Shown here: one piece after another, positions 24,216 to 30,934 of the stretch | Layout: each line of letters starts with the position of its first letter | Numbering within the stretch: the stretch's first letter is position 1 | Source: Nibricoccus sp. | Lineage (GTDB): Bacteria > Verrucomicrobiota > Verrucomicrobiia > Opitutales > Opitutaceae | DNA length: 64,000 bases | Reading direction: 5' to 3' | Assembly (NCBI GenBank): GCA_047602425.1 | Contig: JASGHG010000001.1 | Span: forward strand, 224,001 to 288,000 | The notes under the pieces: model-generated | The model's input: only the letters and a program-made list of their open reading frames with translations | The model's database searches: none | What the model was told of the DNA's origin: nothing | Program-made: the position numbers and the translations under genes

Positions 24216-26153
<1,938 letters not shown>

Positions 26154-26169
26154 AAATTCATCCGCAAAT

Positions 26170-27012
26170 ATGCTTTCTTTTCTAAAGAGTCAAAAACCGC
26201 GCCCGCATCCGAGCTTTTCCAGACGCTTCAAACAGGTTCCGCGCGATCTCGTCCAAAAAGTAAATGGAAACACCACCGAGCAAGGGTTTCGCTACATTGG
26301 CTCCCAAATCCTCGCCGGCATAGAAAGCGAACTCGCCAACATCGCTAAAACGCGCCGGCTCGAACGCGACATCCTTGCAGACTGCCGGCAGATCATGGAC
26401 TTCGGCTCCGGCCTTGGCCGCGTGATCCTGCAACTCGCCGAGCGCTGGCCCGATAAGGAGATTGTCGGCTTCGACATCGACCCTCTCATGAACAAGTGGG
26501 CCAAACACCTGTTAACCGACAAAAAAGTCCGGCTGGTTTCCAGCACCTTGGATCTTCCCGAAAAAAGCTTCGACCTGATCACCGTCATTTCCGTGTTCAC
26601 GCATCTGGATACAACCACGGACTTCTGGCTTGGCGAAATCCACCGCCTGCTCAAGCCAACCGGCTTTGCTTTCATCACCTATCAGGATGACACGCTGTTC
26701 GAGGAAATGAGGGCCAAAGGCGAACTGCCTGCCATAACCAAGCTCGAAAACAAGTACATCTTCGGTCCCGACAGCGCCGAAGGCGGCGCCGGCATGGGCG
26801 CTTTCTATACCACGGCGTGCTGGCGGCAGACGTTGGAAAAATATTTCAATATCGAGACCATCAAGCCACGCGGCCTTTTCGGCCACCAATCGATTTCGAT
26901 CGTCTCGCCTAAAAATGTGCAGATTGACCGTCGCCCCCTCTTCGAAGCTTACGCCGCCAGCCTGGAGCGAGACCTTTACAAGCTCCGTCGGCGCTTCAAG
27001 GTGTCGTATTAG
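26170..27012 (+). CDS. Class I SAM-dependent methyltransferase
   Basis: IMDFGSGLGRV, VGFDID, FDLITVISVFTHL, EIHRLLKPTG. Confidence 0.88.
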   Translation: MLSFLKSQKPRPHPSFSRRFKQVPRDLVQKVNGNTTEQGFRYIGSQILAGIESELANIAKTRRLERDILADCRQIMDFGSGLGRVILQLAERWPDKEIVGFDIDPLMNKWAKHLLTDKKVRLVSSTLDLPEKSFDLITVISVFTHLDTTTDFWLGEIHRLLKPTGFAFITYQDDTLFEEMRAKGELPAITKLENKYIFGPDSAEGGAGMGAFYTTACWRQTLEKYFNIETIKPRGLFGHQSISIVSPKNVQIDRRPLFEAYAASLERDLYKLRRRFKVSY

Positions 27013-27115
27013 TGAGCTTAGTTATCTGCAGGATTGTCAGAAACAGGATACCGTTTCATCCTAAAAATCTGAATTTGCCCGTGCCCTCTGCGGCCGAATT
27101 GTTCAAAAGTTCAAC

Positions 27116-27550
27116 GTGCCTACCGATAGCACATGGTTTTATTGGGCAGTGATGTCCGCGGTTTTCGCGGCTCTCACGGCGATCTTTGCCAAGATTGGCC
27201 TCCAAGGCGTCGACTCCGACCTGGCAACGCTCGTCCGCACCGGGATCATTTTGGTGGTTCTAAGTGGTTTCGTTTGGTATGCAGGCAAATGGAGCAATCC
27301 GTTGCAATTATCTGGTAAGACCTGGCTTTTCCTCGTGCTCTCAGGCCTCGCCACCGGCGCCTCGTGGGTCTGCTATTTTCGAGCCCTCAAAATCGGCGAT
27401 GCCTCCAAAGTTGCACCCGTCGACAAAATGAGTGTCATCCTCGTCGCGATCTTTGCGGTCATTTTCCTCGGCGACCGCCCCAACCTTCGCGAATGGTCCG
27501 GCATCGCACTCGTGGCAGCAGGCATCGTCTTGCTCGCGTTTAAACGCTGA
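27116..27550 (+). CDS. EamA/DMT-family small transporter (single repeat)
   Basis: SAVFAALTAIFAKIG, DSDLATLVRT, LSGLATGASWVCYFRAL, SKVAPVDK; 5 TM segments. Confidence 0.9.
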   Translation: MPTDSTWFYWAVMSAVFAALTAIFAKIGLQGVDSDLATLVRTGIILVVLSGFVWYAGKWSNPLQLSGKTWLFLVLSGLATGASWVCYFRALKIGDASKVAPVDKMSVILVAIFAVIFLGDRPNLREWSGIALVAAGIVLLAFKR

Positions 27551-29548
27551 GTGAAGTTTCCGGCAAGTTCCAACCTTTCGCTTTCCCAACTTGTCAGCAG
27601 GCGGATGGTTCCCTTGACTGGCGTGAAATCTCACATGACCCCCGATCAATTTTGGACCAGCGAGGATGGTCAGATCCTGACCGTTAAACCCAAGGACGAT
27701 CACTCCGTCGCGCTCACTCTTGCCTTCTGGCCGCGTCACCCGGCGGAATTCGATTTCATGAAGGCGCAACGCACCCATTTGCATTTCACCGAGCGCAGCA
27801 CTCTTGCCCGCATCGGCATCGAAATGACGATCAAGGGCAGCCCCGCGATCGACGGTAACCGCATCGTCCTCGAGGCCGACGCTTCCCTTTACGATCTGAG
27901 TTTTCCCAACGCCGCGTATTGGAAAAAACTGCTGCGCTCCGGCGTACCCGTGGGGCGTCTCTATTTTGCGCCCGAATCCGCCAAGCTCACCACCAACGAA
28001 ATCTGGGACGCGGTTAAAAACAACCGACTCAAGCTCCCCAACACCATCAGCATCGATCGCCTTGGCCGTGTTTTTCTTACACCCCACAGCGTTCGCTACA
28101 CGCTCAATCCCCGCCTCCAGCGTCCCCAGTTCGAACGCATGGTCAGCGGCGACGCCGGTCGCGGCTACCTCGACAAAGTCCAGGTCCGCCACGACACGGA
28201 AATGCTCACCGTGCCGCCCCGTTCCGGCATTCTCACCAGTTGCTCGATGTATTTAAAAGAGCACTACGTGCTGCTCAACCGCGGCGAGGGGAACTTCGGT
28301 CTCCACACCAGCGCCGTGCTGCTCGACCCGATCAAGACCTTTGGCACAAACATCATGTTGGAAATCTACAACACCAGCGACCAGCTCGTGGTGAATCCCG
28401 TGGTGTCGGTCGAAGTTTTTCGCGCGCCCGTCGCCACCGATCCGGAGGCCAAATCGCTCGAAAAACGCCGCGCCCGCTTCCACACCGCGTCGACCGCCAT
28501 CTACAAGTGCCTCGATGAGCATCCGCCAAAGGACACCGGGGCGGCCCGTCCCAAGGCCCGAATCACCGTCAAGGGCCAAAGTTCCACCCAGGAAAATTTC
28601 AGCATTCTCCTCAACACCGGCGACCAGGCCGGCCTCAAGGCCATGGTGGATAAGCTCAAGGGCCCCTGCGGCTACCCAACCATGATCCAGGCGCTCGATG
28701 CCGCACCCGAACACGCCGACACGCTGCTCGTCGATTATTTCCCGAACCTTCTCGAAGAGATCGAGCTGTTCACCCGCCTGCCGAAGTTGAAACTCCGCCG
28801 CATCATCTTCCGCAAACCGTCGCGCACCCACGGATTTTTTCTCTCCAACAACGCCCACGCGCGTCTCGAAACCTTCAACACGCTCGGTATCGACGTCTAC
28901 TGGCACAACGAAGGCATCAAGGACCTTTTCCTCCATACCTACAAAAAGACCCATGGCTTTTTCGTCCGTGACGAGCATGTGAAGAAATTCCAGGAGTCTA
29001 CCATCCTCGCCTTTTACGGTTCCGCCGTCGGGCTCGACGACAAAGACACAAACCAAATCTCAACGCTAATCGAGAAGCTCACCGCTTTCATTGGCCCAGC
29101 CGTCGGCGTGCTCACCGGCGGCGGTGGTGGCGTCATGCGTCTCGCGACCGATCAGGCTCGCAACAAGGGAGCCATGACCGGCGCCTGCTTCCTCGAACTC
29201 GAAGCCCAACCACCCGAACTCGGCGTCGACTTCTTCAATACCTTTCAGGACACCGCGCGCCACAACCGTCAAAAGTGGTTCGAGATCGCCGATTTTTGTA
29301 TCTTTAACGTGGGAGGGGTCGGCACGCTCGAGGAGATCGGTATCGAGATGTGCAACCTCAAACTCGGCATCCGCCCGCGCGTCCCGTACATTTTCTACAA
29401 CGCCCGTTTCTGGACCGATCTTAAAAAACAGGTCCGCGAAATGATCCGCAGCAAACGCGCTCCTGCCTGGATGGCCGACTACATCCTCTTCACCGACGAC
29501 CCCGACGAAGTCGTCGCCTTCTACCGCAAGACGTTGAAGGTGCTCTGA
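27551..29548 (+). CDS. LOG/SLOG-family protein with N-terminal dUTPase/dCTP-deaminase-like region(s)
   Basis: C-terminal AFYGSA, VLTGGGGGVM, RQK, GGVGTLEE (LOG). N-terminal RSTLARIGI and GLHTSAVLLDP..FGTNIMLEIYN (Dcd-like). Start uncertain: 27551 GTG, 27606 or 27635 ATG. Confidence 0.8.
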   Translation: MKFPASSNLSLSQLVSRRMVPLTGVKSHMTPDQFWTSEDGQILTVKPKDDHSVALTLAFWPRHPAEFDFMKAQRTHLHFTERSTLARIGIEMTIKGSPAIDGNRIVLEADASLYDLSFPNAAYWKKLLRSGVPVGRLYFAPESAKLTTNEIWDAVKNNRLKLPNTISIDRLGRVFLTPHSVRYTLNPRLQRPQFERMVSGDAGRGYLDKVQVRHDTEMLTVPPRSGILTSCSMYLKEHYVLLNRGEGNFGLHTSAVLLDPIKTFGTNIMLEIYNTSDQLVVNPVVSVEVFRAPVATDPEAKSLEKRRARFHTASTAIYKCLDEHPPKDTGAARPKARITVKGQSSTQENFSILLNTGDQAGLKAMVDKLKGPCGYPTMIQALDAAPEHADTLLVDYFPNLLEEIELFTRLPKLKLRRIIFRKPSRTHGFFLSNNAHARLETFNTLGIDVYWHNEGIKDLFLHTYKKTHGFFVRDEHVKKFQESTILAFYGSAVGLDDKDTNQISTLIEKLTAFIGPAVGVLTGGGGGVMRLATDQARNKGAMTGACFLELEAQPPELGVDFFNTFQDTARHNRQKWFEIADFCIFNVGGVGTLEEIGIEMCNLKLGIRPRVPYIFYNARFWTDLKKQVREMIRSKRAPAWMADYILFTDDPDEVVAFYRKTLKVL

Positions 29549-29561
29549 GTTTGCGCCTCCG

Positions 29562-30260
29562 ATGAAAATTCGCCTCCGGCAGTTACTCCTTTTTGGGACG
29601 TTCCTGCCCATTTGGGCTTGGGCCGACAAATACCAACCGCCCAAACCCATCGTCACGCCCAAAGAACTCGCTGCAGCCGCGGCCGAGGTGCCAGTTAAGC
29701 GTTTGGATCTTACGCTGCCAGAAGTGAAAGACCCGATGGATTCCGATGCTCTGTCCGATTTCTTCTTCAATCGTCCCGAATTGCAGAAATTTCATGGGAT
29801 GATCACTGAAAACTGGCGTGGGAAATGGGATATACTAAGCGGAGCATTGGTAGCTACGGCAAAAAAACAGAAGCTCGAAAGCGCTGGTTTGGCTCGCTGT
29901 TTAGCCAAACTAAATTACGGGCAGAATGCACAGACTCGGTTGCGTGCTTTCTACGTACCGCCAGTTTCTGCGATCGACAAATCTCAGAAAGAAATCGATG
30001 ACGAAAGAATCGCGGGTGAAAAACAGGCGACGATTGAAGAGGAAGAACTAAAAAGAAACCCTCGCTACGATGAAACGCTGGCTTCGGTTCCAATCGCGGC
30101 ATACCTAGCCAAATACCCAAAAGGAGAGTGTTGGATTATTGTTTGTGCTTGGGAGTATGCTCCTACTGCACCCCAAACCCAACAATGTATGGGTCACATC
30201 CGAGTATGGGCCATGGATGCCAAAACCGCCGAAGTGATTGCTTACGAGAGCTGCGGCTAA
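29562..30260 (+). CDS. Hypothetical exported protein
   Basis: Signal peptide ending AWA; 232 aa; visibly AT-richer than its neighbours. Confidence 0.7.
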   Translation: MKIRLRQLLLFGTFLPIWAWADKYQPPKPIVTPKELAAAAAEVPVKRLDLTLPEVKDPMDSDALSDFFFNRPELQKFHGMITENWRGKWDILSGALVATAKKQKLESAGLARCLAKLNYGQNAQTRLRAFYVPPVSAIDKSQKEIDDERIAGEKQATIEEEELKRNPRYDETLASVPIAAYLAKYPKGECWIIVCAWEYAPTAPQTQQCMGHIRVWAMDAKTAEVIAYESCG

Positions 30261-30311: not shown

Positions 30312-30542
30312 ATGCACCTCGAACTCAAGCTCCGGAAAATCGGCAACTCGGTCGGCGTTGTCCTCCCCAAAGCGGCACTCGCCAAACTTGAATCCGCCGA
30401 AGGTGATACGTTGATTCTGAGCGAGGCGCCGGGAGGAGGTTATCGCGTTACACCCAACAAAAACGCTTTTGCCGAACAGATGGCCGTGGCCGCCGACGTC
30501 GCCCGCCGATACCGCAACACCCTGCGCGAACTGGCCAAATGA
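30312..30542 (+). CDS. AbrB/MazE-type antitoxin
   Basis: LKLRKIGNSVGVVLPK; C-terminal RRYRNTLRELAK; ATGA overlap with toxin. Confidence 0.9.
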   Translation: MHLELKLRKIGNSVGVVLPKAALAKLESAEGDTLILSEAPGGGYRVTPNKNAFAEQMAVAADVARRYRNTLRELAK

Positions 30543-30934
30543 AAACTCCTGTCTGGGTGCGACGCGATGTCGTGCTCGCCGTCCAAGAAATGCTCCTCGC
30601 CGAGCATGGCGGAGCCGCCGGTATTCGAGACGAGGGCATGTTCGATTCTGCGCTCGGTCGCCCTGAAAATCTTTTCGCGTACGGAAAACCCACCGTGTTT
30701 GAACTGGCCGCCACCTACGCCTTTGGTTTGGCAAAAAACCATCCATTCATCGATGGCAACAAGCGCATCGCTTTCGCCACTGCGATCATGTTTCTTGAAC
30801 TTAACGGCTATCGTTTCACAGCCACGGAAGTTGACGCTGTTTTGAAAACACTCGCGCTCGCCGCCAGCGAACTAAGCGAGTCAGAGTATGCCAATTGGAT
30901 CAAAGCGAATTCCAAACGCGCACGCCGCAAGTAA
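30539..30934 (+). CDS. doc: Death-on-curing (Fic/Doc) toxin
   Basis: GG..GIRD.G...SAL.RP, NHPFIDGNKR, FL.LNG. Confidence 0.92.
   Translation: MKTPVWVRRDVVLAVQEMLLAEHGGAAGIRDEGMFDSALGRPENLFAYGKPTVFELAATYAFGLAKNHPFIDGNKRIAFATAIMFLELNGYRFTATEVDAVLKTLALAASELSESEYANWIKANSKRARRK

Follow-up and report, generated by a model that had tools for sequence, protein, structure and literature searches.

dCTP deaminases (Dcd) and trimeric dUTPases build each of their nucleotide sites from neighboring subunits. The Escherichia coli nucleosidase PpnN, which has a LOG core, is controlled by (p)ppGpp, and in mammals a dCMP deaminase and DNPH1 together provide a route for nucleotide sanitizing. Here, we analyze a gene from Nibricoccus sp. 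(Verrucomicrobiota, Opitutaceae) that places a two-lobed Dcd-like module, a middle alpha/beta domain, and a LOG domain on a single polypeptide. The gene lies in a 64,000-nucleotide stretch of contig JASGHG010000001.1 (assembly GCA_047602425.1, positions 224,001 to 288,000), hereafter the window; coordinates are window positions on the forward strand unless noted. The gene proper occupies 27635..29548, with its stop codon at 29546-29548, and encodes 637 amino acids (aa); residue numbers refer to this form, counted from the ATG at 27635. Each of the folds is known; our literature searches, which did not cover the 2015 SLOG paper of Burroughs et al., turned up neither a description of their combination in one protein nor a characterized enzyme of this build.

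Architecture and conservation of the fusion protein

An earlier note on this DNA had read the protein as two dCTP-deaminase/dUTPase-like beta-clip units followed by a LOG domain. Fold matches, the Pfam family PF03641, and the motifs described below agree with that description, except that it missed a further folded domain of ~130 aa between the two parts. The note's expectation that the N terminus would adopt a beta-clip fold was also confirmed. In Foldseek, the best ~25 rows for a structure model of aa 1-460 (predicted local distance difference test [pLDDT], 90.9) are dCTP deaminases, dCTP deaminase-dUTPases, or dUTPases, with 2r9q_A at the top (E value of 4e-6, 292 columns). The N-terminal module has the beta-clip fold of the dCTP deaminase/trimeric dUTPase superfamily; the Pfam families DCD (PF22769), DCD_N (PF06559), and dUTPase (PF00692) gave no match to it at E values of up to 1. 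Lobe 1 (aa 2-115; 27638..27979) is a small beta-barrel carrying VGRL (aa 106-109) and RSTLARIG (aa 54-61; 27794-27817), an Arg-Ser...Arg motif. Lobe 2 (aa 116-267; 27980..28435) is therefore, on the strength of the Foldseek matches, a complete Dcd-like beta-clip unit; it contains an invariant TSC at aa 201-203 and an Asp-Pro...Glu...Asn motif, LDPIKTFGTNIMLEIYN, at aa 230-246 (28322-28372).

The motifs had been suspected of being split over two units, and profile comparisons uphold this. When the family was compared with five verrucomicrobial Dcd sequences by hhalign, lobe 2 aligned with Dcd residues 4-147 (133 columns, P = 0.0008), and RSTLARIG of lobe 1 aligned, in a separate alignment, with the Dcd motif GKSTYARCG (P = 0.003). 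A MAFFT alignment that includes E. coli Dcd has just five invariant columns, at Dcd P85, P129, L137, E138, and N141, and places D231 under D128; at 15-19% identity, residue equivalence in this alignment rests on motif and hhalign. The Ser/Arg position of lobe 2 is degenerate, with GEGNFG where Dcd has GRSSLARLG. Going by hhalign and MAFFT, lobe 1 alone has the Ser/Arg motif and lobe 2 alone the Asp/Glu/Asn motif; neither unit holds both. Since trimeric dUTPases and dCTP deaminases assemble their sites from neighboring subunits, we infer by analogy that lobes 1 and 2 together make up a single composite nucleotide site. An origin of the lobes by internal duplication is plausible.

Conservation was assessed over 144 near-full-length relatives, 67 of which are only ~30-37% identical overall. 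Identical in all 144 are R54, S55, R59, G61, G107, and R108 of lobe 1 and T201, C203, L230, D231, P232, T235, E243, and N246 of lobe 2. E243 aligns with E138 of Dcd, a residue already studied, as PDB entries of E138A and E138D variants attest. Retention of exactly these Dcd-like residues is not what one would expect of a domain that is degenerate or has a purely structural role; the earlier note's suggestion of a degenerate deoxynucleoside triphosphate (dNTP)-binding domain does not fit this pattern.

A long helix (aa 270-295) and a linker of low confidence (aa 296-322), together at 28436..28600 and delimited by DSSP and the pLDDT values of both models, connect lobe 2 to the middle domain (aa 323-455; 28601..28999). 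This alpha/beta domain of ~130 aa has no sequence family: no Pfam family, deaminase families included, was common to the 22 members tested. Its candidate fold relatives are human DCTD (2w4l), T4 Cd (1vq2), TadA (2b3j), FdhD (4pde), and ATIC, and it appears to resemble the cytidine/dCMP-deaminase fold without the zinc ligands. The zinc motifs of deaminases, which we take to be H/C-x-E and P-C-x-x-C, are missing because the domain contains no conserved Cys. It does hold invariant residues, namely, P370, E374, F392, G400, F402, S404, H408, and W423, each identical in 144/144 relatives. Most fall in two motifs, FPNLLEE (aa 369-375) and FRKPSRTHGFFLSNNAHAR (aa 392-410); the FPN..E and FLS..(D/A)H.R signatures directly precede the predicted helices 372-384 and 405-416. 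Presumably, these are the positions at which deaminase topology puts the active site, and the location of the invariant motifs there points to a putative third functional site. A search of the middle-domain profile against PDB sequences gave only weak matches to DsbC (E value of 0.016), which we regard as chance; no thioredoxin-fold entry was noticed among the 50 structure-search rows listed.

The C-terminal domain (aa 456-637; 29000..29545) is a Rossmann-like LOG/SLOG domain with a YGS motif, TGGGGGVM (aa 494-501; 29114-29137), RHNRQKW (aa 542-548; 29258-29278), and GGVGTLEE (aa 560-567; 29312-29335). It matches PF03641 (LOG/Lysine_decarbox) with 36.2 bits against a cutoff of 27 (E value of 7.9e-9), as do 25 of the 26 aligned family members, and it stays below the cutoff of the NCBIfam subfamily TIGR00730 (33 versus 96.35 bits). 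By these profiles, it is a divergent LOG, inside PF03641 and outside the curated subfamily. Searched against solved structures, the family profile ranks type-II LOGs at the top (5wq3, E value of 1.4e-21). We take the canonical LOG motifs to be GGGxGxM and PGGxGTxxE, with a catalytic Arg and Glu and a Lys following the Arg. All or all but one of the relatives (143-144 of 144) share R545, E567, and the glycine motif, and a family-specific Val replaces the Pro of PGGxGT. The genome encodes a separate canonical LOG elsewhere (L001:1363-1941), in a 204-aa open reading frame.

Mean identity to distant relatives is 29% for lobe 1, 37% for lobe 2, 29% for the middle domain, and 46% for the LOG domain, against 9% for the linker. 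Judged from these values, all three modules are under constraint, and the linker is free to vary.

Proposed function and competing explanations

The protein is likely a housekeeping nucleotide-processing enzyme of three modules. Its housekeeping character is likely because the gene occurs in 15/15 sampled Opitutaceae genomes and has relatives in 339 species genomes, its neighbors are housekeeping genes, and it has no match in PADLOC. More specifically, we tentatively propose that the beta-clip module binds and converts a (deoxy)nucleotide of the CTP/UTP type and that the LOG domain then cleaves a monophosphate, in which case the protein would serve in disposal or salvage. The composite beta-clip site would take up a cytosine- or uracil-type (deoxy)nucleoside triphosphate and probably convert it; the LOG domain would split a nucleoside 5'-monophosphate, releasing the base and a sugar phosphate. 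The modules would act in sequence, from triphosphate to monophosphate to base, and the middle zinc-less deaminase-like domain may add a third site. The substrate would be a pyrimidine, and the beta-clip site would be catalytic rather than sensing only, since the catalytic Glu of Dcd (E243, aligned with E138) is retained.

Several observations count against this proposal. No sequence family covers aa 1-455 in Pfam, NCBIfam, PADLOC, or PDB sequence searches, and the similarity between the module and Dcd is weak at the sequence level (hhalign probability of 10-25%, P of 0.0008-0.003), although these values agree with the folds. Lobe 1 alone matches only generic barrels, hhalign finds no similarity between lobe 1 and lobe 2 (E value of 0.16), and the proximity of the lobe 1 Ser/Arg to the lobe 2 Asp/Glu is presumed by analogy. 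Dcd has an aromatic residue in its DPG[FWY]xG loop; the longer loop found here, DPxxT[RF]G, has none in that place, and the specificity for sugar and base may differ owing to this change. In the LOG domain, an invariant Gln takes the place of the Lys after the LOG Arg. In addition, the purD neighbor in Opitutaceae would point to purines rather than pyrimidines. Finally, the relatives that diverge most (P0254, from Rhabdochlamydia, and P0265) have degenerate beta-clip motifs and keep the LOG motifs, a pattern that fits a regulatory domain equally well as the loss of a first step.

The earlier note had offered two alternatives, a two-step enzyme or a LOG enzyme under a nucleotide-binding domain, and these are still the two best readings. 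In the latter, which we judge possible but rather unlikely, a LOG nucleosidase would be switched by the N-terminal modules, and the beta-clip site would bind a (d)NTP solely as an allosteric effector, balancing nucleotide pools in the manner of PpnN. The LOG core is the best-conserved part and looks clearly catalytic, Dcd entries have been solved with bound dTTP (2j4q, 2qxx), and the predicted template modeling (pTM) score of 0.83 for the full-length model suggests fixed interdomain packing. The loss of the beta-clip motifs, and not of LOG, in P0254 and P0265 is in line with such a switch, and purD following the gene in 61/80 Opitutaceae loci would suit purine-pool control. Yet purD is not adjacent in 80/80 distant loci, a pure sensor would not need the Glu aligned with E138 that 144/144 relatives retain, and neither hhalign, VIA, nor Pfam (DUF4478) shows any likeness to the domains flanking LOG in PpnN. 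The analogy with PpnN drawn in the earlier note holds for the LOG core and fails, by hhalign and VIA, for the flanking domains. If the proposed catalytic sequence were carried through every module, the single polypeptide would constitute a full three-step disposal line for pyrimidine deoxynucleotides. In it, the dCTP-deaminase/dUTPase-type site would take (possibly modified) dCTP to the monophosphate, the zinc-independent deaminase-fold domain would perform new chemistry on that monophosphate, and LOG would remove the base. We consider this complete scheme improbable.

Alternatively, the folds may have been reused in a different pathway, such as the making or recycling of a modified nucleobase, nucleoside, or cofactor, or in an action on nucleic acid, as in the SLOG protein DprA. 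Here, the middle-domain site and the invariant Cys203 would carry out chemistry unrelated to dCTP deamination; this explanation also seems quite unlikely. We regard as least probable by far that the protein is an antiviral effector depleting nucleotides, possibly with the EamA protein encoded upstream exporting the released base. Defensive dCTP deaminases and SLOG effectors do exist, as reviewed in PMC13276650, and an EamA gene lies directly upstream both in the window and in the nearest relative, L005. However, the protein and both of its neighbors match 0 families of PADLOC-DB 2.0 (2023 library) at E values of up to 1, and the regular occurrence of the gene, with one match in each of the 15 sampled Opitutaceae genomes, is unlike that of patchy defense genes. 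The neighbors are housekeeping genes, EamA is adjacent in only 1/80 close and 0/80 distant loci, and the gene does not begin at the GTG that touches the EamA stop. Neither the antiviral framing nor the exporter link of the earlier note is supported by these results: in all likelihood, the gene is neither a defense system nor linked to the EamA transporter.

Distribution, gene start, and neighborhood

With an N-terminal query, we found the gene once in every sampled Opitutaceae genome (15/15, covering 14/14 genera), at 62-90% identity over aa 1-460, and in 0/185 other Verrucomicrobiota genomes at E values of up to 1e-5. A scan of species genomes gave 339 relatives, of which 80 were kept; these 80 are titled Opitutaceae, Opitutales, or unclassified Verrucomicrobia. 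The N-terminal 452 aa are matched by only 146 of 1.84 billion representatives. Relatives that align over the full length, at 20-45% identity, come from Planctomycetota (Pirellulaceae or Planctomyces) and from one metagenome-assembled genome of Pseudomonadota, and a very divergent relative belongs to Candidatus Rhabdochlamydia (Chlamydiota). The presence of the gene in every sampled Opitutaceae genome and its recurrence in Planctomycetota suggest that it probably has a core metabolic function in these bacteria, which are widespread in soil, water, and gut.

The Nibricoccus genome, which is 99.97% complete, encodes a dUTPase (L083:1468-1896), and no canonical Dcd (PF22769, PF06559) was found in it. 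We considered a complementary distribution of the fusion and Dcd and rejected it: a full-length DCD match is missing in Opitutaceae, but equally in most other Verrucomicrobiota without the gene, and many of the matches are dUTPases crossing to the DCD model. The absence of Dcd is uninformative in this regard because it is common to many Verrucomicrobiota without the fusion.

The open frame containing the gene is longer than the gene itself, comprising 665 codons (27551..29548) and beginning with a GTG right after the TGA of the upstream EamA gene. More than 1,000 proteins match this frame; the 120 listed are 70-92% identical and mostly ~637 aa long, covering 96% of it. In an alignment of 12 homologs, most start at the Met at residue 29 of the long frame, and the N-terminal extensions of the longer ones are mutually unrelated. 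Since most homologs begin at residue 29, as does the ESM Atlas record of the protein, we take the ATG at 27635 as the true start. The 28 codons of the in-frame upstream extension (27551..27634) are unconserved and missing from homologs of 92% identity; they probably represent intergenic DNA that follows the EamA stop and is not translated. The real gap between that stop and the gene is 84 bases, and, going by the homologs, the EamA stop and the GTG touch only because the longest open frame was chosen. A scan for promoters and terminators gave no signal above shuffled sequences. Database names for the homologs include "LOG family protein," "DNA-binding protein," and "Rossmann-fold nucleotide-binding protein."

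Upstream in the window (24216-27550), speA (arginine decarboxylase) and genes for an S-adenosylmethionine (SAM) methyltransferase and an EamA protein are arranged head-to-tail. The EamA protein is half-size, with 144 aa and a single domain, and only the nearest relative, L005, shares this trio beside the gene. Downstream lie an open reading frame of 232 aa with a hydrophobic N terminus and no Pfam family (29562..30260), relatives of which occur in 2/80 loci (L004 and L006); a 76-aa AbrB/MazE-like open reading frame, so named by eye from its sequence (30312..30542); and a 131-aa Fic/Doc protein (30539..30934; PF02661, E value of 3.9e-18). The AbrB/MazE-like antitoxin frame overlaps that of the Doc toxin by 4 bases. 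These genes separate our gene from purD, and the 232-aa frame and the toxin-antitoxin pair look like an insertion because purD follows the gene in 61/80 related loci, mostly directly.

In those 61 Opitutaceae loci, purD lies downstream on the same strand, usually ~10-130 bases away. The other window neighbors are rare among the 80 loci (EamA, 1; methyltransferase, 1; speA, 2; 232-aa frame, 2; Doc, 2). In the distant group, represented by 80 metagenome loci, the gene has neither purD nor EamA beside it (0/80 each); a family-wide operon with purD is therefore rejected. Recurrent neighbors in the distant group are a HAD phosphatase (36 loci), an AlaX-like editing domain, a radical-SAM protein, an aminotransferase, a peroxiredoxin, and MutY, with the qualification that these loci are probably interrelated and the counts are not independent. 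The HAD phosphatase is of the Cof type (Pfam Hydrolase_3; 36/80 of L100-L179) and stands divergently upstream in L176 (2555-3553, reverse strand). It could be a functional partner with sugar phosphate or nucleotides as its substrates, or its position could reflect mere synteny of related genomes. Overall, the housekeeping neighbors include purD, glyA, queG, shikimate kinase, the HAD phosphatase, and mutY, and no neighborhood resembling a defense island was found around the gene.

Comparison with known systems

The nearest structural relative of the N-terminal module is the "dCTP deaminase" of Agrobacterium tumefaciens, 2r9q, a long two-lobed form of the Pfam family DCD_N (PF06559) that is ~11-12% identical to the module and has neither a middle nor a LOG domain. 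PF06559 has no match in our protein or its genome, and a sequence link to the 2r9q family was discarded, this family being undetected in 201 Verrucomicrobiota genomes at E values of up to 1e-15. The structure was solved in 2007, and our literature search found no paper on its function; the fusion would provide a first functional handle on this two-lobed module. Three further proteins, from genomes of the same order and phylum, were considered as 2r9q-like long forms but proved instead to be Dcd domains carrying membrane tails. They are encoded on the reverse strand at L180:361-1311, L181:342-1337, and L182:290-1096 (316, 331, and 268 aa) and consist of a Dcd-like N-terminal domain (Pfam DCD) followed by an extended helical region and, at the C terminus, a hydrophobic tail. 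From its sequence, this looks like a membrane-anchored Dcd-like protein, possibly a defense-type deaminase.

With E. coli PpnN (YgdH), a (p)ppGpp-regulated nucleotide 5'-monophosphate nucleosidase, our protein has only the LOG core in common. hhalign aligns residues 489-634 with PpnN 178-333 only, and VIA aligns ~185-190 residues. The flanking domains of PpnN (DUF4478 and DUF3412) have no Pfam match in the protein, which is not of the PpnN type; a search of 121 Verrucomicrobiota genomes for DUF4478 at E values of up to 1e-8 likewise gave no match. Two ESM Atlas leads, DUF4478 (0.81) and "putative AMP nucleosidase" (0.81), were set aside, as Pfam, hhalign, and VIA give them no support. The fusion would be a naturally occurring LOG enzyme coupled to further nucleotide sites, which bears on how nucleotides are disposed of or rebalanced, and its middle domain may represent a new branch of the deaminase fold that lacks zinc. 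If the three-step line were true, bacteria would have, in fused form, a counterpart of the mammalian route through dCMP deaminase and DNPH1, and the protein would supply the first function for a "2r9q-type" module.

In the homotrimeric Dcd and bifunctional Dcd-dUTPases of E. coli (1xs1/2j4h), Mycobacterium tuberculosis (2qlp/2qxx), and Methanocaldococcus jannaschii (1ogh), the Ser/Arg and Asp/Glu motifs lie ~15 residues apart within one chain, whereas in our protein 170 residues separate them and each has its own lobe. A comparable division is found in the monomeric herpesvirus dUTPases, which share their motifs between two halves to form a single site; these enzymes (Epstein-Barr virus, 2we1; pseudorabies virus, 8zwq) and the related tegument proteins are viral and stand-alone. 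Likewise, the type-II LOGs of Corynebacterium glutamicum (5wq3), Streptomyces coelicolor (5zi9), and Thermus thermophilus (TT1465, 1wek) are stand-alone proteins of ~200-260 aa, whereas in our protein, LOG forms the last third of a 637-aa chain.

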